DNA from: Acidobacteriota bacterium
GTDB lineage: Bacteria > Acidobacteriota > Thermoanaerobaculia > UBA5066 > Gp7-AA6
DNA: 62,463 nucleotides
Direction of reading: 5' to 3'
NCBI GenBank assembly: GCA_046724475.1
Contig: JBKOVK010000013.1
Location: forward strand, 1-62,463
The position numbers were made by a program, and so were the translations under genes. A model generated the notes under the pieces. That model did not search any database. It had not been told where the DNA came from and saw only the letters and a list, made by a program, of their open reading frames with translations. Below, piece after piece: positions 7,534 through 62,463 of this stretch (positions within the stretch are counted from its first letter, which is position 1; the number at the start of each line of letters is the position of its first letter).

Positions 7534-9243
7534 TCAGCTTTCCGGACTTCCCGGGGCCCGGAACCGCCGGAACCCCTCCACCGTCGAGAGCCGCATCTCT
7601 TCGGTCTGGCCGGGAAGCCAGGGCCGCGGCACGCCGAGTCGCTGGATCGCGCGGTCGGCGATCTGAAGAGAGGTCTCGAACTCTTCGGCCACGACCTCAT
7701 CGGCTCCGGCGGCGGAAAACGCCGGGATCTCGGCGATGTAGCGGGCGCGCGCGAGGATGAAAAGTTTCGCGTTGAGCCTCCGGCAGTGCCGGATCGTCTG
7801 CCGCGTCGCCCTGGGATCCGAAAGCAGGACCACCGCTGCCCTCGCGCTTTCGATGCCGTTGCGGCGAAGGACGACGTCGTTGGTCGAGTCGCCGTATTCG
7901 ATCGGCACGCCCTTCTTCATTCCGCGCTTGACGCGGTCGGGATCCAGGTCGATCACCCGAAAGGCGACGCCGGCCTTCTTCAGGACTCGCGCGACGGTCT
8001 CGCCCATATGCCCGAATCCGATGACCAGGACGGTGTTCTCGCCGGGAAGCGGCGGGAAGGATCGCGGAAGACCCGGGGCGCCCCCGGCCACGCGGAAGGC
8101 CACGGCGTGGCTCGCCTCGGAGAGAAACGGGGTGGCGATCATCGTGATGATCGCCGCCGCCAGGAACGTCTGGTAGACCTCGCTCTCGATCAATCCGGAC
8201 AACCGTCCCTGGCGCAGCAGCACGAAGGAGAACTCGCCGATCTGCGCGAGCGACAGGCCGACCACCGTCGCCACGCGGAGGCCGTATCCCAGAGCGAAGA
8301 CCGCGGCCCCGCCGGCGATCGTTTTCCAAACCAGGATGAGGGCGAGGAGAACGCCGACGGGAACCGCCGAGGCGACGACGGTCCGCGCGTCGAAGAGCAT
8401 CCCGATCGAGACGAAGAAGACGGCGCTGAACACGTCGCGAAACGCGGCGACGTCCGCCTGCGCCTGGTGCCCGTACTCGGACTCCGACAGGATCAGGCCG
8501 GCCAGAAACGCTCCGAGCCCGGCCGACAGGCCTGCCCAGGCCGTCGCGATCGAAGAGCCGAGAACGAGGAAGAGGACGGCGACGACGAAGATCTCCTTCT
8601 GCCGCGTACCGGCGAGGGCGCCGATGAAACGCGGCACGAGGAAGCGCGCTGCCACGAACAGAGCAGCGGCGGTGATGGTGGTCTTTCCCGCGGCCGCCAG
8701 CGACGGGACGAGCCCCGAGGACCCCGCTCCGGCCAGGTAGGGAAGGGAGAGCAGCATCGGGACGACCGCGAGATCCTGGAAGATCAGGATCCCGACGAGG
8801 ACTTTCGCGTGCGGCGCGTCGAGCTCCCGCCGGTCCATCAGGAGCTTTAGCACGATGGCCGTGGACGACAGCGCGACGAGGTAGCCGAAGAAGAGGCTCC
8901 GCGAAGCGGGGTATCCAGCCAACGCCGCGACCGCGTAGACGAGCGCGATCGACGCGGCGACCTGTATGGGCCCGGCGACCCAGACGACCTTCCCGAGCCG
9001 GCGCAGGTTCCCCAGCGAGAGCTCGAGGCCGACGGTGAAGAGCAGCAGGACGACGCCGATCTCGGCGAGGATCTCGACGACGTGCACGTCCCGCACGAGA
9101 CCCAGCCCAAACGGACCCAAGATCGCTCCGGACAGAAGAAAGCCGATCAGGGGCGGCTGGCGGAGGCGGTGAAGGACGTAGGCCGTGCCCAGGGCCACCA
9201 GGAAAATCAGGGCCAGGGGCCCGACGAACTCCGGGGCCTGCAT
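7534..9243 (-). CDS. CPA2-family cation:proton antiporter with C-terminal TrkA-N/RCK domain (KefB/KefC-like)
   Basis: ORF 7534..9294. Polytopic N-terminal domain plus VLVIGFGHMGETVARVLKKAGVAFRVIDLDPDRV (Rossmann/RCK). I prefer ATG 9243 (MQAPEFVGPLALIFLV...) because a CATAAT box lies 6 nt upstream; the track start at 9294 is possible. Confidence 0.85.
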   Translation of the reverse strand: MQAPEFVGPLALIFLVALGTAYVLHRLRQPPLIGFLLSGAILGPFGLGLVRDVHVVEILAEIGVVLLLFTVGLELSLGNLRRLGKVVWVAGPIQVAASIALVYAVAALAGYPASRSLFFGYLVALSSTAIVLKLLMDRRELDAPHAKVLVGILIFQDLAVVPMLLSLPYLAGAGSSGLVPSLAAAGKTTITAAALFVAARFLVPRFIGALAGTRQKEIFVVAVLFLVLGSSIATAWAGLSAGLGAFLAGLILSESEYGHQAQADVAAFRDVFSAVFFVSIGMLFDARTVVASAVPVGVLLALILVWKTIAGGAAVFALGYGLRVATVVGLSLAQIGEFSFVLLRQGRLSGLIESEVYQTFLAAAIITMIATPFLSEASHAVAFRVAGGAPGLPRSFPPLPGENTVLVIGFGHMGETVARVLKKAGVAFRVIDLDPDRVKRGMKKGVPIEYGDSTNDVVLRRNGIESARAAVVLLSDPRATRQTIRHCRRLNAKLFILARARYIAEIPAFSAAGADEVVAEEFETSLQIADRAIQRLGVPRPWLPGQTEEMRLSTVEGFRRFRAPGSPES

Positions 9244-9292
9244 TCGAGAATTATGCGCTCCCGGAGTTCTCTGGTAGCCTCCCGGCCACTTC

Positions 9293-10597
9293 ATGAGCGC
9301 ATCCGGAGCCCTCGCCGCTGCGCCGGCGGCCCGCGAACGCCACCCTCGAGGTCTCTACGTTCTCTTCTGCGTCGAGCTGTGGGAGCGCTTCAGCTTCTAC
9401 ACGATGCTCGCGCTGTTCACGCTCTACCTCCAGGACAAGGCCGAAGGCTTCGGCTGGACGGATGCCCAGGCCACCACGCTCCGGGCGAACTACCTGCTGT
9501 TCGTCTTCTTCAGCCCGCTCATCGGCGGATGGCTGGCCGATCGCTTCCTGGGCTATCGCCGCGCGGTCATGATCGGAGGGTTCTTCTTCATCGCCGGGCA
9601 CATCCTGCTCGCCGTCCGGTCGCTGCCCATGGTGTACACGGCGCTCGCGTGCCTGGTCATCGGCAACGGGCTCTTCAAGCCCAACGTCTCGACGATCGTC
9701 GGCAACCTCTATCCCAAGGGCAGCCACCTGCGGGACCGCGCCTACAACATCTTCTACATGGGCATCAACACGGGAGCGACGGCGGGCCCCATCGTCGTCG
9801 AGTTCGTGCACCGCAAGTACGGCTTTCACCCGGCGTTCGCCGTGGCCGCGGTGGGGATGGTGATCTCGGTCGCGACGCTGATCGTTTTCCGCAAGTGGAT
9901 CGAGCCGGGGGACCGAACGCCCGGCGGCCGCGAGGACGTCGAGGACGCCAGCCCTCCGACGGCGATCGACGCCGTTCCGGAGGGCCGACGGATCTTCGCC
10001 CTGATCGTCATCTACCTGGTGTCGATCGTGTTCTGGATGATCTTTTTCCAGAACGGATCGACGTTGACGTACTGGGCCAACGACAATACCGACTGGAACT
10101 TCTCGGGCATCATCTCCAACGCGATCGAGCCCTTCTTCGTAATTGCGTTCTCGCTGCCCTTAGTCTGGCTCTGGAGGGAGCTGGACAAGCGCGGCAAGGA
10201 GCCGGCGACGACGACCAAGATCGCCTTCGGGATGTTCCTGATCTCCGCGGCGTTCTACGTGATGTATTTCGCCGGGAAGGCCGGAGGCGACACGGGCCGC
10301 GTGTCGCCCTGGTGGCTGATCGGCAGCTATGCGCTGGTGGGCCTCGCGGAGATCACCCTGTCGCCCATGGCGCTTTCGCTGGTTTCCAAGGTCGCACCGC
10401 GCCGATACCGAAGCCTGATGATGGGCGCCTGGTTCGTCGCGACCGGCCTCGGCGGCAAGCTGACCCAGATCGGCGTGTACTGGACGCAGTGGAAGCACTC
10501 GACCTTCTTCGGCGTGCTGGGAACGATGGCGCTCGCGACGGCCCTGCTCCTCGTGGTTCTGCTCAAGCCCCTCAAGCGGGCGATGCCCGGCGTCTGA
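9293..10597 (+). CDS. proton-dependent oligopeptide transporter (POT/PTR2, DtpT-like) of the MFS
   Basis: 434 aa. ELWERFSFYTMLALFTLYL...FSPLIGGWLADRFLGYRRAVMIGG matches the PTR2 signature region. About 12 TM segments. Confidence 0.85.
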   Translation: MSASGALAAAPAARERHPRGLYVLFCVELWERFSFYTMLALFTLYLQDKAEGFGWTDAQATTLRANYLLFVFFSPLIGGWLADRFLGYRRAVMIGGFFFIAGHILLAVRSLPMVYTALACLVIGNGLFKPNVSTIVGNLYPKGSHLRDRAYNIFYMGINTGATAGPIVVEFVHRKYGFHPAFAVAAVGMVISVATLIVFRKWIEPGDRTPGGREDVEDASPPTAIDAVPEGRRIFALIVIYLVSIVFWMIFFQNGSTLTYWANDNTDWNFSGIISNAIEPFFVIAFSLPLVWLWRELDKRGKEPATTTKIAFGMFLISAAFYVMYFAGKAGGDTGRVSPWWLIGSYALVGLAEITLSPMALSLVSKVAPRRYRSLMMGAWFVATGLGGKLTQIGVYWTQWKHSTFFGVLGTMALATALLLVVLLKPLKRAMPGV

Positions 10598-52175: not shown

Positions 52176-54248
52176 ATGCCGCGTCCCACCCACCCCGGCC
52201 CGCCGCCAACGGCCACGGCTCTCGGCAAGCCCGAGTCCTACCTGGACGCCCAGGCGCGGGCTTCCGGCCGATTCCGGCTGAAGACCGACTTCACACCGCA
52301 GGGCGACCAGGCCCAGGCCATCGCGAAGCTGGTGGAGGGCCTCGACGAACGACGCTCCGACCAGGTGCTGTTGGGTGTGACCGGCTCGGGCAAGACTTTC
52401 ACGATCGCGAAGGTGATCGAGACGGTCAACCGTCCCACGCTCGTGCTCTCGCACAACAAGACGCTCGCGGCCCAGCTTTACCAGGAGTTCCGGAGCTTCT
52501 TTCCGGAAAATTCCGTCGAGTACTTCGTGTCGTACTACGACTACTACCAGCCGGAGGCCTACGTTCCCCAGACCGACACGTACATCGAGAAGGAGACCTC
52601 CCGCAACGAAGAGATCGACAAGCTGCGGCTCTCGGCCTCCAAGGCGCTCTTCGAGCGCCGGGACGTCATCGTCGTAGCGTCGGTCTCGTGCATCTACGGC
52701 CTCGGAGCGCCCGAGTCCTACTACGACATGCTGGTGTACCTCGAGGTCGGCGACTCCCGGGGGATGCCGGCGCTGCTGTCTCAGCTGGTGGAGATGCAGT
52801 ACGAGCGCACGAACCTGGATCTCGCGCGCGGGACGTTCCGCGTGCGCGGCGACGTCCTCGAGATTCATCCGGCGTACGAGGACACGGCGGTCCGCGTCGA
52901 ATTCTTCGGAGACGAGATCGAGAAGATCACGAAGACCGATCCGCTGCGCGGCACCGCGCTGCAGAGGATGGACCGGCTGGCGCTCTACCCGCGAACCTTC
53001 TACGCGACGCCCCGGGAGACGCTCGAGCGGGCGGTCGGGTCCATCCGCGTCGAGCTCGACGAGAGGCTCGCGGAGCTGACCAACGCCGGGCGCTTGCTCG
53101 AGGCGCAGCGCCTCCACCAGCGCACGATGTTCGACCTCGAAATGATCAAGGAGCTCGGGTACTGCAACGGCATTGAGAATTACTCCCGCCACCTCTCGGG
53201 CCGCGCGCCGGGCGAGCCGCCGCCGACGCTGCTCGACTACTTCCCCGAGGACTACCTGCTGGTCGTCGACGAATCCCACGTCACCCTGCCGCAGGTGCGC
53301 GGCATGTTCCACGGCGACCGCTCACGCAAGCAGGTCCTGGTGGACTACGGCTTTCGGCTGCCCTCGGCGCTGGACAATCGGCCGCTGACCTACGACGAGT
53401 TTCGGGACCGCGTGCACCAGACCATCGCCGTCAGCGCCACTCCCGGAGGCGAGGAGCTCGAGCGCGCCGGGGGAGAGGTCGTCGAGCAGGTCATTCGCCC
53501 TACGGGCCTTCTCGATCCGCAGATCGAGGTCCGCCCGGTCAAAGGGCAGGTGGACGATCTCCTGTCGGTCGTGCGGGAAGCGGCCGCCAGCGGCGAGCGG
53601 GTTCTCGTCACGACGCTGACCAAGCGCATGGCCGAGGAGCTGACCAACTATTTCACCGAGGTGGGAGTGCGCTGCCGGTACCTCCACTCCGACATCGAGA
53701 CGCTCGACCGCGTCGAGATCCTGGGAGATTTCCGGCGCGGGATGTTCGACTGCCTCATCGGCATCAACCTGCTCCGCGAAGGTCTGGATCTTCCGGAGGT
53801 GGCGGTCGTCGCGATCCTGGACGCCGACAAGGAAGGGTTCCTCCGCAGCGAAACCTCGCTCATCCAGACCGCGGGAAGGGCCGCCCGAAATCTGAAGGGA
53901 AGAGTCCTCTTTTACGCCGACGCGATGACCGACTCGATGCGCCGCGCGATCGAGGAGACCGCCCGCCGCCGCACGATCCAGGAGAAGTACAACGTCGAGC
54001 ACGGCATCGTGCCGGCGTCGATCGTCAAGCAGGTCAACTCGCCTCTGGTCCGAATGGGGAATCTCGACTACTACGAAGTGTCTCTGCCGCCGCGCCCGGA
54101 TCTGCCCGACCGCGAATCGATCCACAAGCGCATCGCGGATCTGGAGAAGCAGATGAAGGCGGCCGCCAAGGAGCTCGACTTCGAGAAGGCCGCGGCGCTC
54201 CGCGACGAGATCCGGAGTCTCAGGGAGCTGGAGATCTTCAGGACCTAA
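52176..54248 (+). CDS. uvrB: excinuclease ABC subunit B
   Basis: 690 aa. [11 protein letters not shown]...[12 protein letters not shown]...[12 protein letters not shown]...VVDESHVT...C-terminal UVR motif [17 protein letters not shown]. Confidence 0.96.
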
Positions 54249-54622
54249 TTCGGGGCCGGCGTCGGTCGGGGTGTCGGTACCGGCGTCGGCCCCGGCGTGG
54301 ACGCCGCCGTCGGCGCGGGCGTCCCGGGGACCGGGTTGCGGCGCAGGAAGATGCGCGCGGCACGCTCGGAGGGATCCTCGGACACGGCGCGCGTGTCGAC
54401 CTTCGGCTTGAGGCCATTCTCGATTCCCGCGGAGACCGAGATCGGAACGCCGCTCTGTCCCTGCTTCGAGTCCGGCGTCCAGGCGGCCGCATCTGCCGGG
54501 CGCAGGCCGATCGGGATGTTGCAGGGAATGGCGCCGTTGCAACGCGCGATCGGAACCAGCTGCGCGTGCGCGGCCGCCGCGAACAGCAGCGTCAGCGCGG
54601 CGAGAAGGACACGGCCGGCCAC
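54245..54622 (-). CDS. secreted hypothetical protein with Pro/Thr-rich tail (125 aa)
   Basis: Signal peptide [21 protein letters not shown]. Tail [26 protein letters not shown]. Starts 1 nt after the stop of the zinc-ribbon ORF. Confidence 0.5.
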
Positions 54623-54623
54623 G

Positions 54624-54839
54624 TCACAGCCATTTGCACGCGCGCGCGAAGCCCGCCAGGATCAGAAGGAGCGCCGCGGCGGCCACCAGCCAGACCGCCG
54701 TCCGCGACTTCGGGGCCAGAGGCCTCTGCCGCGTGTAGAAACCCGTCTGCCATCGTTCAATCTCTCGACCGCACTTGGGACAGACCGGCGTGCCGGGCTC
54801 CACCGGTGTGTAGCAGTACGGACACTCGTACATCGGCAC
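54624..54839 (-). CDS. small zinc-ribbon membrane protein (71 aa)
   Basis: MPMYECPYCYTPVEPGTPVCPKCG (CxxC-x10-CxxC) followed by one TM segment (AVWLVAAAALLLILAGFA). Confidence 0.5.
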   Translation of the reverse strand: MPMYECPYCYTPVEPGTPVCPKCGREIERWQTGFYTRQRPLAPKSRTAVWLVAAAALLLILAGFARACKWL

Positions 54840-54895
54840 GGAAGCATCATACCGAAGCGCGAAGCCGTTGACGCGAACCGGGTTAAACTGATTTC

Positions 54896-56701
54896 GTGGT
54901 CGAGCGTCAGGCCCCGAAGGATCTGCCCGATGCGCCAGGGGTGTACCTGTTCCGAGGGGAAAAGGGAAAGCTCCTGTACGTCGGGAAGGCGCTTTCGCTC
55001 AAGAAGCGCATCGCCTCGTACTTCAGCGGGGACACCGACACCAAGACGGCGGCGCTGCTGCGCTCGTATCGCGACATCGAGACCATCGTCACGCGGACGA
55101 ACCTCGAGGCCCTGCTCCTCGAGAACACGCTCATCAAGAAGCACCGTCCCCGGTACAACGTCTGCCTCCGGGACGACAAGACCTATCCCTACATCAAGAT
55201 CACGACGGGCGAGGCCTGGCCACGGGCTCTGGTGACGCGCCGCGTGCAGGAGGACGGACACTCCTATTACGGGCCCTTCTGGGGAGGCCTGGTCCGGCGG
55301 ATCATGCGCCTGATCACGCGCCACTTCCAGATTCGGACCTGCACGATCGAGATCGACGGCAAGCTCCCGCGACCCTGCCTGTACTACGACCTGCACGCGT
55401 GCCTCGGGCCGTGCGTCGCGGGCCTGACGACGAAGGAGGCGTACGCCGACGCCGTGGCCGACGTGGTCCTGTTTCTGGAGGGCCGAAACGCGGAGCTCGA
55501 AGAGCGCCTCGAAGCCCGGATGAAGGCCGCCTCCGACGAGGAGAATTTCGAAATGGCCGCCGCGTACCGCGACGCGCTCCGCACGATCCGCGACGTGGCG
55601 GAACGCCAGGTCGTCCAGTCCATGAAAGGCGAGAACATCGACGTCTTCGGGTTCTTCGAGTCGGGGCAGGACGTCGCCGTCGTGGTGCTGGTCGTTCGGG
55701 GAGGAGTCCTGCAGGACCGGCGCGACTTCTTTTTCGAGAAATCGCAGGAGGTGGATCCCTCCCGCTTCCTCGAGACCTTCCTGCCCCAGTTCTACGATGC
55801 CAACCCGTTCCTCCCCGCCGAGGTCCACCTCCCGGTGGCGATCGAGTCGCGCGAGGTGCTCGAGGAGTTCCTCACGCAGCGCCGGGGTGCGAAGGTCTCC
55901 GTCAAGGTGCCGCACCGCGGCGGGGCGGCGGAACGGGTCCGGATGGCCGGCGTCAATGCGAGCGAGCGGCATCGCATCCGTTTCCGCCGCACCGGGGGAG
56001 AGGAAGCGATCGCCGCCGAGCGTCTGGGACGCGCGATCGGGCTCGCCGCGCCGCCTCACCGGATCGAGGCATTCGACATCTCCCACACACAGGGCACCGA
56101 CAGCGTCGCATCCATGGTGGTCTTCGAGGACGGCAAGCCCCGGAAGTCCGACTACCGCCTCTTCAACATCGCGGCGCAGGGCCTGCTGCAGCCGGACGAC
56201 TTCCGCAGCATGGCCGAAGCGGTCGAGCGCCGGTATCGCCGCGTCCAGGCCGAGGGAGGCGATTTTCCCGACCTCGTCCTCGTCGACGGCGGCCGGGGCC
56301 AGCTCCAGGCCGCGATGACCGCCCTCGACCGCCTGGGTGTGGAGCTTCCGATCGCGGGGCTCGCCAAGCGCGAAGAAGAGATCTGGGTGCCGGGCCGCCC
56401 GGACCCCATCCGACTGTCCCGCAAGGACCCGGCCCTGCAGCTGATCCAGCACGCCCGCGATGAGGCGCACCGCTTCGCGATCTCGCGCCACCGTCAGCGC
56501 CGCGGCAAGCGGATGCGCCAGACCGGACTCACCGACATCCCGGGAGTCGGGCCGGCGAGAGCCCGTCTGCTGCTTCGCCGGTTCGGGTCGGTAAAGGGCC
56601 TGAAAGGGGCCGACCCGGTCGAGATCGAGGCGGCCGTGGGACGCTCGACCGCGCGCGCCGTGGCCGCTTATCTTCAAGGGCAGGATTCGCCGTCGGCATG
56701 A
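54896..56701 (+). CDS. uvrC: excinuclease ABC subunit C
   Basis: 601 aa with a GTG start. GIY-YIG (PGVYLFRGEKGKLLYVGKA...RYNV), UVR motif (ENFEMAAAYRDALRTI), endonuclease region (IEAFDISH...), C-terminal HhH (LTDIPGVGPARARLLLRRFGS). Confidence 0.95.
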   Translation: MVERQAPKDLPDAPGVYLFRGEKGKLLYVGKALSLKKRIASYFSGDTDTKTAALLRSYRDIETIVTRTNLEALLLENTLIKKHRPRYNVCLRDDKTYPYIKITTGEAWPRALVTRRVQEDGHSYYGPFWGGLVRRIMRLITRHFQIRTCTIEIDGKLPRPCLYYDLHACLGPCVAGLTTKEAYADAVADVVLFLEGRNAELEERLEARMKAASDEENFEMAAAYRDALRTIRDVAERQVVQSMKGENIDVFGFFESGQDVAVVVLVVRGGVLQDRRDFFFEKSQEVDPSRFLETFLPQFYDANPFLPAEVHLPVAIESREVLEEFLTQRRGAKVSVKVPHRGGAAERVRMAGVNASERHRIRFRRTGGEEAIAAERLGRAIGLAAPPHRIEAFDISHTQGTDSVASMVVFEDGKPRKSDYRLFNIAAQGLLQPDDFRSMAEAVERRYRRVQAEGGDFPDLVLVDGGRGQLQAAMTALDRLGVELPIAGLAKREEEIWVPGRPDPIRLSRKDPALQLIQHARDEAHRFAISRHRQRRGKRMRQTGLTDIPGVGPARARLLLRRFGSVKGLKGADPVEIEAAVGRSTARAVAAYLQGQDSPSA

Positions 56702-58530
56702 GGACCACGTTCGGTCCGGAGGGAGAGATCCGCGGCACGGACCTGCTCGCGGCGCTCGTCGCGTTGTGGCGCGAGAACGCGAGCGGTTCGCTCCAGTTCT
56801 CCCGCTCCGGAGCGATGGCCGGCTTCGAGCTCGCGGGAGGCGAGGTCGTATCGGCGTCGTCCTCCGACTCGCGCTTCGAGACCGGAGCGATCCTCGTGCG
56901 CGCGGGCAAGCTCGACGCGTCGGCGCTCGAGCGCCTGTCCCCCCAGGAAGGGGGCGATCGCGCGCGGACCGCCCTGCAGGCGGGGCTGCTGACCAAGCGG
57001 GAGTGGCGGTGGGGAGAGAAGATCCGGGCCGTCGAAGTGCTGTCGGATCTGCTGACGTGGCTCGAGGGCGACTACACGTTCTTCCGAACCACGCTGCGGG
57101 AGCCGGGAGAATTTCGACTCACGATTCCGCGCCTGATCCTCGAGCTCTTCCTGCGCTCGCGCGACCGTGGGCTCGTCCTCCACTATCTCGGCGGCGCGGA
57201 CGCTCCGCTGGTGCGCTCGGCGAGCTTCGACACCGAGTTCGCGACGTTCGGGCTGACTTCGGATGCGGAGGCGGTCGTCCGCCTCATCGACGGAAAGTCC
57301 ACGGCGGCCGAGATCGCCAGCGAGGCGCCGGCCGACGCTTTCGCGGTCGAGAAACTGCTGGCGGCGCTGGTCACGCTCGGGCTGATTCATCCCGAGTATG
57401 CCGGCGAAGCGCCGATGCCCCGCCCGACGATTCCAGCGGCGCCGCCGGAAATCGAACCGCCCGAGGCTCCGAGCGACGAGACTCCGGCGGAGGCACTCGA
57501 AGAGGTCCCGGCGGCGCCCGTCGAGCCCGAGGCAGAGGAGGCTCTGGCCGCGGTCCCTCCCGAACCGGAACGGTACGAGCTGGCCGAAAGCACCGATGAG
57601 CCGGCGCCGGAACCTGTCGCGAACCTGGATGAGCCGCCGGAGAAGGAGGAGCCGGAGGAGCCTTCGGCGTCGGAGGAGCCGTCGCTCGACAGTCTGGAGC
57701 CCGAGATCGATCTGACCGAACAGCCACGGTCCGACTACGAATCTCAGATTGCCGGCGGATCGGGTGGACACGAAGCCCAGGAGGACCTCGGCACCGGTCC
57801 GAGTGAGCTCTATGAGGCCTCGCCCTTCGACCGACCTCTCGACACGACGACCGGTGTCGGAGGCCTGGAGCGTCCACGCACCCGCTCACTGTCCCCGATT
57901 CTGTGGCTGCTGGTGCTTCTGGGAGCGGCGCTGGGAGCCATTCTCGTGTTCCGCTCTCGCGCGCATCAGGAGGCGACGGCTGCCGGGCCGGCGCCGGCGA
58001 CCGCGGTCCCCACTCCCGCGGCGGCCGCGGCTCCCGAGGTACGAGTCGCGACGGGTGTTCCAATCGCTGCCGCGACCGCGCTTCCGACCCGCGCCTCCGC
58101 GGCGACGGCCGTTCCGACTGCGGTCGCTACTCGCCGCGCGCCCACCTCCGCGGCCCAATCGCCGCGCCCGACGGCCGCACGTGCACCAGCGCCCGCGAAT
58201 GCTTCGGAGGCGTCGGCATCGAGCACGGCGCGCCAGCCGTGGCTCGATCGCGCCTCGCGGGACCAGAAGCGCCTGGCCGGAGAGGCGAAGACTCGGTACG
58301 CGATCCAGCTCGAGCTCGTCTGCGAAACCCAGTCGCTCGTGGACGCCTTCAAGCACGACCGGCCCTCCGGGACAATGTGGTTGATGACCACCGATTTCCA
58401 TGGCCGCACGTGTTTCAAGGTGCTCTGGGGCCGGTACTCCTCGCTGGAGGCGGCCAAGCGTGTCCAGGGGCGTACACCGGCCTTTTTCTCGACTCCGCAC
58501 AACCGGCCCGCCGTCGTGGCGGTCCGCTGA
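56698..58530 (+). CDS. bitopic membrane protein: cytoplasmic DUF4388/PATAN-like domain, acidic Pro/Glu-rich linker, TM, Ala/Pro/Thr-rich spacer, C-terminal SPOR-like domain
   Basis: 610 aa. ATGA overlap with uvrC. N-terminus GTDLLAALVALWRENASGSLQFSRSGAMAGFELAGGEVVSA...LTWLEGDYTFF (DUF4388 pattern). TM ILWLLVLLGAALGAILVF. C-terminus RYAIQLELV...CFKVLWGRYSSLEAAKRV (SPOR-like). Confidence 0.7.
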   Translation: MRTTFGPEGEIRGTDLLAALVALWRENASGSLQFSRSGAMAGFELAGGEVVSASSSDSRFETGAILVRAGKLDASALERLSPQEGGDRARTALQAGLLTKREWRWGEKIRAVEVLSDLLTWLEGDYTFFRTTLREPGEFRLTIPRLILELFLRSRDRGLVLHYLGGADAPLVRSASFDTEFATFGLTSDAEAVVRLIDGKSTAAEIASEAPADAFAVEKLLAALVTLGLIHPEYAGEAPMPRPTIPAAPPEIEPPEAPSDETPAEALEEVPAAPVEPEAEEALAAVPPEPERYELAESTDEPAPEPVANLDEPPEKEEPEEPSASEEPSLDSLEPEIDLTEQPRSDYESQIAGGSGGHEAQEDLGTGPSELYEASPFDRPLDTTTGVGGLERPRTRSLSPILWLLVLLGAALGAILVFRSRAHQEATAAGPAPATAVPTPAAAAAPEVRVATGVPIAAATALPTRASAATAVPTAVATRRAPTSAAQSPRPTAARAPAPANASEASASSTARQPWLDRASRDQKRLAGEAKTRYAIQLELVCETQSLVDAFKHDRPSGTMWLMTTDFHGRTCFKVLWGRYSSLEAAKRVQGRTPAFFSTPHNRPAVVAVR

Positions 58531-58566
58531 ATCAGGCTTTCTGTTACCCTAGGCGATCACCTTCTA

Positions 58567-60198
58567 GTGCCAATGACGACTCAGGCGAAGCCGGCCGGTT
58601 TTCGGGGCTCCCTGTCCGAGACGCCCCTGCCGCAGGTTCTGCGGAGGATCTTCCTCGAGGGGCTCAAGGGGACCCTTTCGCTCGTCCACGGGGACGAGAC
58701 CCGGCACCTCTTCTTCGAGAAGGGCGAGCTGCGCACGGCCACTTCGTCGCGCGAGGGCCAGCGCATCGGGGCCTTCCTGCGCCGTCGCGGCTGCATCACG
58801 GACACCGATCTCAACTGGGCCCTGGAGACGGTCGCCAAGCAGGGACGGGCGAGGCTCGGAAAGATCCTGGTCGATCGGGGGCTCGTCTCGCGCACGGTCC
58901 TCGATGCTGAGATGCGCCGGCTGGTCGAGGAGATCGTGTTCTCGACGTTCGCCTGGGACACGGGCGAATACCGCTTCCAGGCGTCCACCGGCGTCCTGGA
59001 TCCGGACGTCGCGCTGACCCTTTCGACGGCCGCGATCATCGTCGAGGGGATTCGCCGGCTCCCCGAGAGCGAGGCTTTCCGCGAGAGGCTGGGCGACGGC
59101 CATGGGGTTCCGATCCTGGCCACGGATCCGATGTCGCGCTACCAGTACCTCCCGCTCACGCCGCAGGAGGCGTACCTGTTGTCGCGCATCGACGGCATCC
59201 TCGAAGTGGATTCTCTCCTGAAGATCGCGGGCGCCTCGCGGGCGGCCACGGGCAAGATCCTCTACGGCCTCATTTCGTGCGGGATCGTCGAGTGGAAGCA
59301 GGAAGGCGCGGAGAGGCCGGCCAGCGGCCGCGGCGGTTTCCACGGACTGAACGTGGAAGTCGGCGCCGAGCCGGCGGACCGGTCGCCGGGACACGCCGAG
59401 CTCGTGCGCAACACCTACCGCCGCATCGACTGGCTGACGCACTACGAGCTGCTCGGCGTGCCGAGGGACGCGACGACCGAGAAAATCGCCGAGGCCTATT
59501 TCGAGCGCAGCCGCCTTTTTCACCCCGACCTGCGCCACCGCGAAGATCTCGCCCGATTCGAGAAGGAGCTGGTGGCCGTCTTCGAGAGGATGAAGATCGC
59601 ATACGAGGAGCTCTCGGACGCGGAGCGCCGGGCGCTCTACGATCAGAGCCTGGATGCCGCGCCGGCTTCGCTGCTGATGACCGAGGCGCCGACGACCGAT
59701 CCCGAGATGCGCAAGAAGCTCGCCGCCCAGAATTTCCGGCGCGCACGCCAGCTCATCGAAGAGAAGGACTATCACCCGGCCGTCGAGATGCTCCGCGCTG
59801 CCGTGCGCTTCGTTCCCGACAACGCGGAGTACCGCTATGTCCTGTCCCAGGTCGAGATGAAGAATCCGAACTGGATCGACCAGGGCCTCTCCAACCTGAA
59901 GGAGGCCGCGCGTCTGGACAGCCGGCGCGTGGCGTATTCCGTGGAGGCCGCTCGCGCGCTGGCCGACCACGGCCGTCACCAGGAGGCCGAGCCCTTCGCC
60001 CGCCGCGCCGTGTCGCTGGACCCCTCGCCCGAAAACGAAGAGCTCCTGGCCCGGATCGTCACCGGCGCCTCGCAGCCGGCCCCGGCTCCCGTAGCGGCCA
60101 TGAAAGAACCCGCGAAGGAGATCGAAACGGCCGTGCCCGAGGCCGAGCCCGCGCCCCAGCCGACCGGTCTTCTCTCGCGCCTCTTCCGGAGAGGATGA
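58567..60198 (+). CDS. DUF4388/PATAN-like domain protein with a J-domain (HPD) and TPR-like C-terminus
   Basis: 543 aa. N-terminus GSLSETPLPQVLRRIFLEGLKGTLSLVHGDETRHLFFEKGELRTA...FAWDTGEYRFQ. J-domain THYELLGVPRDATTEKIAEAYFERSRLFHPDL...YEELSDAERRALYD. An alternative ATG start at 58573 is possible. Confidence 0.72.
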   Translation: MPMTTQAKPAGFRGSLSETPLPQVLRRIFLEGLKGTLSLVHGDETRHLFFEKGELRTATSSREGQRIGAFLRRRGCITDTDLNWALETVAKQGRARLGKILVDRGLVSRTVLDAEMRRLVEEIVFSTFAWDTGEYRFQASTGVLDPDVALTLSTAAIIVEGIRRLPESEAFRERLGDGHGVPILATDPMSRYQYLPLTPQEAYLLSRIDGILEVDSLLKIAGASRAATGKILYGLISCGIVEWKQEGAERPASGRGGFHGLNVEVGAEPADRSPGHAELVRNTYRRIDWLTHYELLGVPRDATTEKIAEAYFERSRLFHPDLRHREDLARFEKELVAVFERMKIAYEELSDAERRALYDQSLDAAPASLLMTEAPTTDPEMRKKLAAQNFRRARQLIEEKDYHPAVEMLRAAVRFVPDNAEYRYVLSQVEMKNPNWIDQGLSNLKEAARLDSRRVAYSVEAARALADHGRHQEAEPFARRAVSLDPSPENEELLARIVTGASQPAPAPVAAMKEPAKEIETAVPEAEPAPQPTGLLSRLFRRG

Positions 60199-60797
60199 CT
60201 CCGGTCCTGACCGGCCTCGGCCTCGCGGCCGCGGCCGGCCTGAATGCCTGGGTCGTCCTGCTGCTCGTCAACGGTCTGGCTCTCCTCCTTCCGCAGGAGT
60301 TCCCGGGCACGACGACTGCGTTTCTGACGAGCCACGGAGTGGTCACCGCGGCGTTGGTGCTCTTTCTGGCCGAGTTCGTGGCGGACAAGATCCCCATCGT
60401 GGACCACCTCTGGAACCTGGCGCAGACGCTGCTGCGTCCCCTCGTCGGAGCCCTGCTCGTGCTGGCGTGCGTTCCCGAGGCTTCGGCGATCGAGCGCATC
60501 CTGCTGGCGCTGGCGGGCGCGGCGGTCACCGTCGCCACGCATCTGGCGCAGGTGACCACGCGTCTGACGTCCACCGCGGCGACGCGAGGCCTGGCACAGC
60601 TCGCCGTCTCGCTGGCCGAGGACGTGCTGGCCCTGGCCTTCGCCGCGCTGGTCTTCTTCGTGCCTCCGTTCGCGGTGGTGTTCCTCGGCGCCCTCGCGAT
60701 CCTCTTGATCGCCGACCGCCGACGTGTGCTCCACGGGCTCGCGGTCATGTTCTTCCGGCTCAAGCATCCGCGCCGCCGCGCGCGGGCCGAGACCTGA
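60195..60797 (+). CDS. DUF4126 family membrane protein
   Basis: ATG 60195 (ATGA overlap), 200 aa. GLGLAAAAGLNAWVVLLLV...LAEFVADKIPIVDHLWNLAQTLLRPLVGAL is the typical DUF4126 core. Confidence 0.65.
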   Translation: MTPVLTGLGLAAAAGLNAWVVLLLVNGLALLLPQEFPGTTTAFLTSHGVVTAALVLFLAEFVADKIPIVDHLWNLAQTLLRPLVGALLVLACVPEASAIERILLALAGAAVTVATHLAQVTTRLTSTAATRGLAQLAVSLAEDVLALAFAALVFFVPPFAVVFLGALAILLIADRRRVLHGLAVMFFRLKHPRRRARAET

Positions 60798-61252
60798 TGC
60801 CGTACCTGCTCGACGGCAACAACCTGATTGGTTCCGTCCTCGGCCGGTCGCGGCCGACCGAAGAGGACCGCCAGGCGCTCGTGGCCGAGATCGCCGACCG
60901 GCTTCGACGCAGCCGCGCGACCGCGCGCCTCTACTTCGACGGGCCCGCCGGGAACCGGCCGGCGTCGCTGGGGAGCTTGTCGGTCCAGTCGGCGTCGGCG
61001 GGAGGCGCCGACGATACGATCGTCCGCGACGTCGAGAACGCCGCCGACCCCGCCTCGATGATCGTGGTGACAGCCGACCGCGAGCTCCAGCGTCGCGTGC
61101 GCGCGGCCGGCGGCAAGACCTGCGGTCCGACAGAATTCTTCCAACGCTTCGGGCGCCGCGCGCCGAAGGGGTCGTCGGCACCCGAGGGCCGGATCGACGT
61201 CGAGGAATGGACGCGGTTCTTCGAGGATGAACGGAATAGGACCCGGGATTAG
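60797..61252 (+). CDS. NYN/YacP-like (PIN-related) putative ribonuclease
   Basis: ATG 60797 overlaps the preceding TGA by 1 nt, 151 aa. MPYLLDGNNLIG...YFDGP...GGADDTIVRDV...MIVVTADRELQRRV matches the YacP-like NYN pattern. Confidence 0.6.
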   Translation: MPYLLDGNNLIGSVLGRSRPTEEDRQALVAEIADRLRRSRATARLYFDGPAGNRPASLGSLSVQSASAGGADDTIVRDVENAADPASMIVVTADRELQRRVRAAGGKTCGPTEFFQRFGRRAPKGSSAPEGRIDVEEWTRFFEDERNRTRD

Positions 61253-61321
61253 CCCGTCTCAACAGGGACCGAAGTGGGATACTCGGGCGAGTCGGCCCAC
61301 TGTGCAGAAAGGAGGCTCTCC

Positions 61322-62059
61322 ATGAAGAAGGTGGTCTATACGGCGATCAGTGGTCTCGCCGTGCTCGTTCTCGCGGCGGCGACGAAGCCCAACGGAGCCG
61401 CGGACTGGTCCCTCAACGCCACGATCATCGAGGCGTGCAGCTGCAAGATGTTCTGCACCTGCTACTTCACGACCACGCCCGATCCGGCCCAGAGCGAAGG
61501 CCATCAGGGCCACGGGGAGGGCAAGCACTACTGCCGGTTCAACATGGCCTACAAGGTCAACAAGGGAAAGAGCGGCGACGTCGACCTCGCCGGCGCCAAG
61601 TTCTGGATCGCGGGCGATCTGGGTGATGATTTCGGCGACGGCCAGACCGACTGGGCGGAGGTGACCTTCGACCCCTCCGTCACCAAGGAGCAGCGGGACG
61701 CCATCGCCAAGGCACTGCTGGGGCCGGTCTATCCGTGGAAGTGGAAGTCCTTCACGGTCGGCAAGGATGCTCCGATCGAGTGGAACGGCGGGACGGAAAA
61801 GGCCGCGGCGAAGCTCGACGGCGGGAAGGGCGGCGAGATCGTGCTCGCGCACAACTCCACGGCCATGACTCCCGAGCCGACGGTGATCAAGAACCTGAAG
61901 TACTTCGCGGCGCCGCGCAACGACGGATTCGTGCTGATGCCGAGCCAGCTCGAAGCCTACCGGCGCGGAGACAACGCCTTCGAGTACAAGGGCACGAACG
62001 GATTCATGATCACCGTCGACGTCAAGTCGAGCGACGTGAAGGAGCCGAAGACTCCGTAG
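61322..62059 (+). CDS. exported DUF1326-like protein
   Basis: ATG 61322 is preceded by AAAGGAGG. Signal peptide MKKVVYTAISGLAVLVLAAA. WSLNATIIEACSCKMFCTCYF resembles the Cys-rich N-terminal DUF1326 motif. The track start 61274 lacks an SD. Confidence 0.55.
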   Translation: MKKVVYTAISGLAVLVLAAATKPNGAADWSLNATIIEACSCKMFCTCYFTTTPDPAQSEGHQGHGEGKHYCRFNMAYKVNKGKSGDVDLAGAKFWIAGDLGDDFGDGQTDWAEVTFDPSVTKEQRDAIAKALLGPVYPWKWKSFTVGKDAPIEWNGGTEKAAAKLDGGKGGEIVLAHNSTAMTPEPTVIKNLKYFAAPRNDGFVLMPSQLEAYRRGDNAFEYKGTNGFMITVDVKSSDVKEPKTP

Positions 62060-62071
62060 TAAAATCGACGC

Positions 62072-62460
62072 GGCTCCGAGCGGGCCACGCGATCGCTCCG
62101 GGACGATTCGTTCCGGAGAGGAAAGTCCGAACTCCATACGGGCGGCATGCCGGGTAATCCCCGGTCGCGGCGACGCGAAGGAAAGTGCCACAGAGAACAA
62201 ACCGCCCTCCGAAAGGACGGCAAGGGTGAAACGGTGCGGTAAGAGCGCACCGCTCCTCCGGCAACGGAGGGGGCACGGCAAACCCCATGCGGAGCAAGGC
62301 CAAATAGGGAGGCAGCGGGCGCCCGTCCCGCCTCACGTCACGTGAGCTGCCTCCGGGTCGGCTGCTCGAGCCCGAGGGCGACCTCGGGCCCAGAGGAATG
62401 ATCGCGGCCCCGCCCTCGCGGCGGGGAACCGAATTCGGCTTATCGGCCCGCTCGGGGCTC
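62072..62460 (+). ncRNA. rnpB: RNase P RNA, bacterial type A (complete; P1 closes at both ends)
   Basis: Universal elements read directly: GAGAGGAAAGUCCGAACUCC (62116-62135), AGGGUGAAACGGUGCGGUAAGAGCGCACC, GGCAAACCCCA, and the P4 3' strand GAACCGAAUUCGGCUUAUCGG. The 5' ggctccgagcgggcc pairs with the 3' ggcccgctcggggctc. End coordinates are accurate to a few nt. Confidence 0.9.
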
Positions 62461-62463
62461 TTT

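Follow-up and report, generated by a model that had tools for sequence, protein, structure and literature searches.

Paralogous PATAN proteins ending in a divergent SPOR domain or in a J-domain and TPR region follow uvrC in Thermoanaerobaculia

We analyzed two adjacent genes, here called gene 1 and gene 2, on a 62,463-nucleotide (nt) stretch of contig JBKOVK010000013.1 (GenBank assembly GCA_046724475.1), which comes from an uncultured soil acidobacterium of the class Thermoanaerobaculia. The whole stretch is referred to as the window, and all positions are window positions unless another locus is named. Gene 1 encodes a single-pass membrane protein with an N-terminal PATAN (DUF4388) module and a divergent SPOR domain at its C-terminus, and gene 2 encodes a second PATAN protein that continues into a J-domain, a TPR region and an amphipathic tail. 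Both are located on the plus strand in a gapless gene string that starts with uvrC and ends with a gene for a YacP-like NYN domain (Table 1). A preliminary description, made from the letters of the sequence, had claimed this string, and it was borne out by our analysis, as was the ATGA in which the uvrC stop codon (TGA, 56699-56701) shares bases with the ATG of gene 1 (56698-56700). An ATGA of the same kind joins gene 2 to a gene for a DUF4126 membrane protein, the end of which is in turn overlapped by the start of the NYN gene. The same description placed gene 2 36 nt downstream of gene 1. This distance holds for the GTG at 58567, but the start is more likely the ATG at 58573, since both the public gene calls and the orthologues use it, and the distance then becomes 42 nt.

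Table 1. Positions of the genes, junctions and protein regions of the uvrC gene string in the window (aa, amino acids).
Feature	Position	Strand	Evidence or remark
uvrC (601 aa)	54896..56701	+	GTG start; Pfam UvrC_RNaseH_dom 190.7 bits, GIY-YIG, HhH
ATGA overlap, uvrC stop/gene 1 start	56698..56701	+	read from sequence
Gene 1 (610 aa)	56698..58530	+	
Gene 1, residues 1-236: PATAN (DUF4388), degenerate alpha-clip, winged-helix-like extension	56698..57405	+	Pfam DUF4388; hhalign
Gene 1, acidic Pro/Glu-rich linker, presumably disordered, cytoplasmic	57406..57894	+	composition
Gene 1, single transmembrane helix, residues 400-418	57895..57951	+	Kyte-Doolittle
Gene 1, Ala/Pro/Thr-rich periplasmic spacer	57952..58212	+	composition
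Gene 1, C-terminal helix and divergent SPOR domain, residues 506-610, and stop codon	58213..58530	+	profile, model, orthologues
Gene 1-gene 2 spacer	58531..58572	+	36 nt to GTG 58567; 42 nt to ATG 58573
Gene 2	GTG 58567 (543 aa) or ATG 58573 (541 aa) to 60198	+	
Gene 2, residues 1-255: PATAN, alpha-clip, winged-helix-like extension	58567..59331	+	DUF4388 75-78 bits; model pLDDT 87.2
Gene 2, tandem MshEN-like motif, residues 66-89 and 96-119	58762..58923	+	NCBIfam, PDB profile matches, Foldseek
Gene 2, J-domain, residues 291-359	59437..59643	+	Pfam DnaJ; HPD at 59521-59529
Gene 2, TPR region, about residues 386-500	59722..60066	+	TPR_14, TPR_16, TPR_2
Gene 2, C-terminal amphipathic tail GLLSRLFRRG and stop	60166..60198	+	hydrophobic moment
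ATGA overlap, gene 2 stop/DUF4126 gene start	60195..60198	+	read from sequence
DUF4126 membrane protein gene	60195..60797	+	Pfam DUF4126 121.5 bits; start/stop coupled to gene 2
YacP-like NYN domain gene, end of gapless string	60797..61252	+	NYN_YacP 26.0 bits, cut-off 24.6

The N-terminal modules of the two proteins belong together. On the Pfam DUF4388 model (PF14332, gathering score 25 bits) the whole gene 1 protein was borderline at 24.2 bits, its N-terminal 236 aa alone reached 27.0 bits and its orthologues scored 32-62 bits, while the whole gene 2 protein scored 75.2 bits. When a profile built from gene 1 orthologues was aligned by hhalign with one for the gene 2 N-terminus, the probability was 98.7% and the E-value 1.6e-16 over 229 columns, which span the PATAN core, a helical insert and a C-terminal winged-helix-like piece (LTSDAEAVVRLIDG... 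in gene 1, LTPQEAYLLSRIDG... in gene 2). Judged by these profiles, paralogy extends across the entire modules of about 235 residues, the winged-helix-like part included, and the two matching PATAN-like domains of the preliminary description stand as paralogues.

Downstream of its module gene 1 has a strongly acidic linker (residues 237-405; Glu 21%, Pro 18%, net charge -36), followed by the transmembrane helix PILWLLVLLGAALGAILVF, where the Kyte-Doolittle average over 19 residues has its maximum of 2.57. This is the only strongly hydrophobic segment in the protein, and the same scan of the protein showed no signal-like segment at the N-terminus. The spacer that comes next is rich in Ala (35%), Pro (15%) and Thr (12%) between residues 433 and 520. 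Thus Pfam, hhalign, composition and hydrophobicity confirmed the order first proposed for gene 1, from the DUF4388 domain through the acidic linker and one membrane helix to the Ala/Pro/Thr spacer.

The last 105 residues of gene 1 are highly conserved in the orthologue alignment and contain two invariant cysteines. When a profile of 32 orthologous C-termini was run against all PDB chains, the single match at E<=10 was the SPOR domain of E. coli DamX (2LFV, E 0.0015). The AlphaFold model of this part (mean predicted local distance difference test, pLDDT, 90.7; predicted template-modelling score, pTM, 0.83) shows a long helix and then the strand-helix-strand-strand-helix-strand order of the SPOR fold (E29-36, H39-46, E55-62, E65-75, H78-85 and E100-103). 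The best three Foldseek matches of the model in the PDB were the SPOR domains of DamX, CwlC and DedD, each with a probability of 1.00, and the SPOR domain of RlpA fitted it with a template-modelling score of 0.62 at 3.4 Å. Orthologues gave a further line of evidence: in f5, one of the seven Thermoanaerobaculia families that we sampled (f1 to f7), one orthologue passed the Pfam SPOR model (PF05036, gathering score 21 bits) with 24.7 bits and two others reached 20.1 bits. With profile, fold model and orthologues in agreement, we assign the C-terminus of gene 1 as a divergent SPOR domain. An exhaustive search with the C-terminal profile found the domain in 944 cluster representatives at E<=0.001, and among 61 long representatives that carry it 45 match DUF4388 and 16 match SPOR (E<=0.01). 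Gene 1 is therefore a member of a sizeable, undescribed family of PATAN-transmembrane-SPOR proteins with the layout of DamX.

SPOR domains bind denuded glycan strands, i.e. strands stripped of peptides, at the division septum. FtsN binds glycan through a Gln in strand 1 and Trp/Arg in strand 3. In the gene 1 family the strand 1 Gln is invariant (Q32 of the alignment), its DamX counterpart being the Gln in the strand-1 segment YTLQL, and an Arg/Lys is retained in strand 3. The two invariant cysteines, Cys537 (58306-58308) and Cys572 (58411-58413), are located at the end of strand 1 and at the start of strand 3. As these strands should be neighbours in the SPOR fold, a periplasmic disulfide between Cys537 and Cys572 is plausible from the topology; its positions would differ from those that we assume for the FtsN disulfide.

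In gene 2 the Pfam DnaJ model (PF00226) matched along its entire length (positions 1-63 of 63) with 51.9 bits, against a cut-off of 27.8. The HPD tripeptide is intact at residues 319-321 and is also kept in f1 and f2 orthologues, and the protein has neither the Gly/Phe nor the zinc-finger region of DnaJ. J-domains with HPD activate Hsp70. The TPR region behind the J-domain scored 25.0 bits with TPR_14 (cut-off 23.5), was matched by TPR_16 and TPR_2 as well, and gave an NCBIfam MamA-like match of 35 bits, so that the J-domain with HPD and the TPR-like part read from the sequence earlier were both confirmed by domain models. The C-terminal tail has a hydrophobic moment of 0.72, which ranks 525 of 532 among the 11-mers of the protein. 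This tail, the last ten residues, is conserved between f1 and f3, and variants of it occur in f3, f4 and f7 orthologues. Because its pattern resembles the C-terminal membrane-targeting helix of MinD, gene 2 would by analogy be expected at the inner face of the membrane. A public protein of 658 aa (P0198) was considered as a possible fusion of gene 2 with DUF4126. The junction looks like Arg-rich translation in a wrong frame and the DUF4126 part is cut off, which makes a frameshift artefact probable, and the candidate was rejected.

The preliminary description had also noted that each of the two proteins contains a helix, RLGKILVDRGLVSRTVLDAEM in gene 2 (from residue 96) and ETGAILVRAGKLDASALERL in gene 1 (residues 61-80), resembling half of the MshEN motif for binding of cyclic di-GMP (c-di-GMP). 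For gene 2 this was an understatement, as both halves are present: motif I is RIGAFLRRRGCITDTDLNWALETV and motif II is RLGKILVDRGLVSRTVLDAEMRRL, set apart by 6 residues where MshEN has 5. In the AlphaFold model this region forms four helices (residues 67-127) between the strands 54-60 and 134-139. A search of the PDB with the gene 2 N-terminal profile matched PilF (E 2.7e-11), MshE (5HTL, E 4.5e-6) and several PilB chains, and these matches coincide exactly with the stretch that binds c-di-GMP (residues 7-52 of MshE). By local Foldseek the modelled helices fitted the c-di-GMP-bound GSPII-B domain of PilF at 2.4 Å over 59 columns, with 32% identity. Sequence and model together give good support to the view that the tandem is homologous to MshEN, and it is the known alpha-clip insertion of PATAN domains. 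This resemblance is not new, since the recognition that the alpha-clip is akin to repeats at the N-terminus of pilus and secretion ATPases is credited to Makarova et al. 2006, as far as reported in bioRxiv 10.1101/2021.06.11.447907. For gene 1 the half motif was an overstatement. Gene 1 aligns with gene 2 over the alpha-clip columns (by hhalign, on sequence only), but its copy is degenerate; it carries no motif and a profile search of PDB sequences gave no MshEN chain.

Homology with MshEN raises the possibility that gene 2 is a c-di-GMP receptor, in which binding at the alpha-clip switches the partner binding of the PATAN module or the activity of the J-protein. This would also connect gene 2 with the MshEN-GAF genes that the window has at 33-38 kb. 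In addition to the PilF, MshE and PilB matches on the binding motif and the fit to ligand-bound PilF, the NCBIfam model of the MshE-related c-di-GMP motif (NF053729) recognized gene 2 with an E-value of 1.8e-8, although the score of 34.0 bits remained under the cut-off of 38. All but one of 120 gene 2 homologues carry the tandem, with R1, G3 and G10 of both motifs invariant among those 119. The residues that differ are the problem for this explanation. The published motif, RLGxx(L/V/I)(L/V/I)xxG(L/V/I)(L/V/I)xxxxLxxxLxxQ, occurs in two copies with a 5-residue gap, and none of the 120 homologues conforms to its relaxed form from Wang et al. 2016 (PMC5013675). Position 24, a Gln in MshEN, is V/I in motif I and L in motif II of 119 of the 120 homologues, position 7 of motif I is Lys/Arg, and in the f2 orthologues the whole motif is degenerate. 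For the GSPII-A domain of PilF, binding became measurable only after both terminal Gln had been restored (PMC12002112). With both terminal Gln replaced, binding of c-di-GMP by gene 2 is doubtful, and we regard the receptor explanation as unlikely.

To see how stable the two architectures and their position are, we compared the locus in the seven sampled families. The f1 sample consisted of 80 loci from named Thermoanaerobaculia assemblies. In all 80, wherever the contig flank suffices, the order is uvrB ... uvrC-gene 1-gene 2-DUF4126, with the J-domain present in gene 2. A 4-nt overlap joins uvrC to gene 1 in 52 of 61 loci and gene 2 to DUF4126 in 50 of 54, while the spacer between genes 1 and 2 in relatives varies from 10 to 203 nt and is mostly 33-57 nt. 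The f3 loci have the same order followed by the NYN gene, but the J-domain has been lost from gene 2 by a clean deletion; in the orthologue at L019 8669-9961 about 110 residues with the J-domain are missing and PATAN, TPR and tail are retained, and the same genome has a separate PATAN-J-TPR paralogue elsewhere (L018, about 8070-9386). In f2 uvrC is followed directly by gene 2, with its J-domain, and DUF4126, and no SPOR domain of the gene 1 type was found in nine of nine near-complete genomes. A gene 2-like gene with J-domain likewise follows uvrC in f4 and f7, where the gene 1-type domain is absent from the genome. The reverse is seen in f5 (4 of 4) and f6 (1 of 1), in which gene 1 directly follows uvrC and gene 2-like genes are found elsewhere (three of the four f5 genomes have them, as does f6).

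All seven families thus have gene 1, gene 2 or both behind uvrC, and in the four families where gene 1 exists (f1, f3, f5 and f6) it is gene 1 that directly follows uvrC. This is the most robust regularity in our data: within the class a PATAN gene is always behind uvrC, and gene 1, where present, is always the uvrC-coupled one. The linkage of the gene pair to uvrC, which the preliminary description had asked about, therefore holds for one gene or the other in every family and for the full pair only in f1 and f3. DUF4126 was considered as a universal partner of gene 2 and rejected, as the two are adjacent in f1, f2 and f3 only and were not found side by side elsewhere in the phylum. Outside the class PATAN-J-TPR proteins were found in 34 of 121 sampled Acidobacteriota, and gene 1-like proteins in 15 of 24 genomes tested, 4 of them within the class. 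None of the 11 gene 1-like genes outside the class is near uvrC, and the two types are close together in one of these 11 genomes (G041). There, in another class and without uvrC, a SPOR-like transmembrane protein (180 aa), a TPR protein with Peptidase_MA (465 aa), a PATAN-J-TPR protein (491 aa) and NYN_YacP follow one another (L113, 2112-6542).

This distribution bears on the model put forward in the preliminary description, in which the two PATAN modules form a heterodimer, so that gene 1, anchored by its SPOR domain, would hold the J-protein gene 2 at the septum together with DnaK. The model draws on the paralogy of the modules over their full length, including the winged-helix-like part, on the adjacency of the genes in every f1 and f3 locus examined, and on the SPOR-like membrane protein two genes upstream of the PATAN-J-TPR gene in G041. 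Co-occurrence, however, does not back it: J-domain and SPOR anchor coincide only in f1, and a SPOR-tethered J-protein is therefore not conserved as a unit. The f3 family keeps the pair with the J-domain of gene 2 deleted, f2, f4 and f7 keep the J-protein in genomes that have no gene 1-type SPOR protein, f5 and f6 keep gene 1 behind uvrC with gene 2 not beside it, and outside the class adjacency is confined to the single genome mentioned. With gene 2 occurring without gene 1 in three families, and gene 1 without an adjacent gene 2 in two, heterodimer formation cannot be the core function. A heterodimer is possible where both genes are present, but as a general explanation of the locus we find the tether fairly unlikely.

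Position behind uvrC could on the other hand matter in itself. Over-production of DamX blocks division, and gene 1 has the layout of DamX. Gene 1 may be imagined as a repair-linked division regulator. Translational coupling would keep it in a fixed ratio to UvrC and the SPOR domain would station it at the septum, from where the cytoplasmic PATAN module would slow or remodel the divisome while excision repair runs. The placement of gene 1 directly behind uvrC wherever it is present in the class and the frequent 4-nt overlap would fit with such a role, as would the finding that PatA, the founding PATAN protein, destabilises the division complex (PMC7380572). The regulatory region of uvrC offers little to this proposal. 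In most of 77 aligned upstream regions a conserved TTAAACT is found about 8 nt before the uvrC GTG (window 54871-54898), which suggests that it is a -10 element and that the uvrC mRNA is leaderless or near-leaderless. Beyond this element the alignment of the 77 regions showed no obvious conserved palindrome of the SOS-box type 5' of uvrC, although an explicit repeat or motif search was not run, and damage induction of uvrC is unsupported in this lineage. When 54200-62463 was scanned for promoters and terminators, no promoter-like sites were seen, and sites resembling terminators were about as frequent as expected by chance. Furthermore, the absence of gene 1-like genes from the vicinity of uvrC outside the class argues against a repair function, and uvrB, uvrC, rnpB and recG form a conserved housekeeping neighbourhood, so that adjacency to uvrC may carry no function at all. 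We therefore regard the repair-linked regulator as very unlikely; the uvrC linkage may reflect either neutral operon inheritance in the conserved uvrB-uvrC-rnpB-recG block or a link between repair and division.

Taken together, our results lead us to lean, though not strongly, towards a reading by analogy in which genes 1 and 2 encode paralogous PATAN adaptors at the envelope or division site that probably bind partner proteins, with gene 2 working together with DnaK. The SPOR domain of gene 1 would, as other SPOR domains do, bind denuded septal glycan and thereby hold the PATAN module in the cytoplasm under the septum or the new pole. Gene 2 would be a specialised membrane-peripheral J-protein, its HPD-containing J-domain stimulating the ATPase of DnaK and its tail holding it at the inner membrane face beside the co-translated DUF4126 membrane protein. 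Both PATAN modules may bind partners in the way cyanobacterial PATAN domains do with PilB/PilC or ZipN/SepF, and the PATAN and TPR parts of gene 2 might select clients and hand partners over to DnaK, so that both proteins would serve assembly at the envelope or the division site. The position behind uvrC would then be an old operon arrangement of the Thermoanaerobaculia with translational coupling. Published work on cyanobacteria provides the basis for the analogy: the PixE PATAN domain is membrane-localised and binds both PilB1 and PilC (bioRxiv 10.1101/2021.06.11.447907), essential division factors are among the interaction partners of PatA (PMC7380572), and DnaK1 binds the PATAN regulator PixG as well as PilB (PMC13710413).

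Several observations weigh against the adaptor reading. The first concerns the SPOR assignment, which the preliminary description had made as SPOR-like and which is upheld by profile, fold and the f5 orthologue, but not by the Pfam SPOR model itself, as neither the whole window protein nor its C-terminal 109 aa gave a match at E<=10. The Foldseek E-values of the SPOR model are modest, with 2.6e-3 as the best, which can be explained by the small size of the fold, and at the strand 3 position where we take FtsN to have its Trp the alignment of the gene 1 family shows an invariant Cys. Secondly, genes 1 and 2 are not an obligate pair, given the arrangements in f2, f3, f4 and f7. Thirdly, public RNA data gave as the only sign of expression a single contig of 214 nt from one soil metatranscriptome, in which no contig crosses the gene junctions. 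The contig matched at 57426-57639 in the acidic linker of gene 1 with one mismatch; it may stem from DNA carry-over, and co-transcription is left unsupported by it. Finally, the PATAN core had no global fold match among solved structures by Foldseek, the best being GATOR1 NPRL-type chains (E 0.027, template-modelling score 0.32) and the rest weak PilM/actin-like pieces, and we draw no conclusion from any of these. With no solved structural relative of the core, partner binding is proposed purely by analogy.

A broader version of the adaptor reading can also be formulated. In this version PATAN plus winged-helix would serve as a general address module for the acidobacterial envelope, and gene 1 would be a repair-coupled division regulator of a new kind: made stoichiometrically with UvrC and brought to the septum by its divergent SPOR domain, it would affect the divisome by way of PATAN. 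Where a lineage has retained both genes, gene 2 would contribute remodelling by DnaK, possibly gated by a ligand of the glutamine-less MshEN-like alpha-clip. We consider this version very unlikely.

In comparison with known systems, the PatA-type proteins (PatA of Anabaena; PixE, PixG and LsiR of Synechocystis) are like the window proteins in that an N-terminal PATAN/DUF4388 domain carries an inserted alpha-clip, and in cyanobacteria this domain is the protein-binding output part at the membrane (bioRxiv 10.1101/2021.06.11.447907). In contrast to these, the window proteins lack a receiver domain, have the added winged-helix-like extension, and continue either as membrane helix and SPOR domain or as J-domain, TPR and amphipathic tail. 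They belong to a different phylum, Acidobacteriota, and we saw no link to a chemotaxis-like system. The layout of gene 1, as judged from sequence and model, is that of E. coli DamX, DedD and FtsN, with the N-terminus inside, a single transmembrane helix, a long periplasmic linker of low complexity and a C-terminal SPOR fold. DamX is the closest of them, since its SPOR domain is the best match to the gene 1 C-terminus by both sequence and structure, and the Joint Genome Institute (JGI) labels some gene 1 orthologues DamX. Gene 1 differs from all three in its cytoplasmic part, which consists of the 236-residue PATAN module and about 160 residues of acidic linker, in a SPOR domain too divergent for Pfam, and in the translational coupling of the gene to uvrC.

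Gene 2 can by domain type be likened to class III J-proteins such as cyanobacterial DnaJ3/Sll1384, which works with DnaK1 and is linked to motility, as both have an HPD J-domain without the Gly/Phe and zinc-finger regions. We assume that DnaJ3/Sll1384 carries TPR repeats as well, a feature for which the text of the paper on the DnaK1 system was searched and of which it makes no mention. That system touches PATAN regulators and the pilus motor (PMC13710413), whereas gene 2 joins PATAN and J-domain in one polypeptide, and its J-domain is dispensable in f3. The alpha-clip of gene 2 shares with the MshEN/GSPII domains of V. cholerae MshE (5HTL) and T. thermophilus PilF the tandem 24-residue motifs of the form R-h-G...G-h-h and the four-helix unit. 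Apart from the longer spacer and the replaced terminal Gln, it differs from them in having no C-terminal MshEN subdomain and in being inserted inside another domain, and the published motif predicts no binding.

PATAN domains are common in environmental bacteria, yet they have been studied almost only in cyanobacterial regulators of the PatA type. We found no published description of the PATAN-transmembrane-SPOR or the PATAN-J-TPR architecture, although the component domains and the MshEN resemblance were already known. What our analysis adds is a map of gains and losses across the class, the finding that none of the f2 genomes has gene 1, a Pfam-level SPOR domain in f5 and a residue-level case against canonical binding of c-di-GMP. 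PATAN-J-TPR proteins occur in about a quarter of the sampled Acidobacteriota, and the fusion of PATAN with a J-domain gives independent support, of the Rosetta-stone type, to the connection between PATAN and DnaK in cyanobacteria (PMC13710413). In a similar way the SPOR fusion points the PATAN module to the division site, which fits with PatA acting on the divisome. If the placement behind uvrC that is seen across the class, with its kept start/stop overlaps, is functional, we predict that it would link excision repair to the control of envelope or division.

The surroundings of the string complete the picture of the locus. Past the NYN gene the window continues with a DUF1326 gene (61274-62059) and then the RNase P RNA region. 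The neighbourhood 3' of the string that is otherwise conserved in the class (L019, L107, L109, L110 and L112) has in their place an LD-carboxypeptidase-like gene, a gene for a protein with cNMP-binding and FHA domains, and recG.

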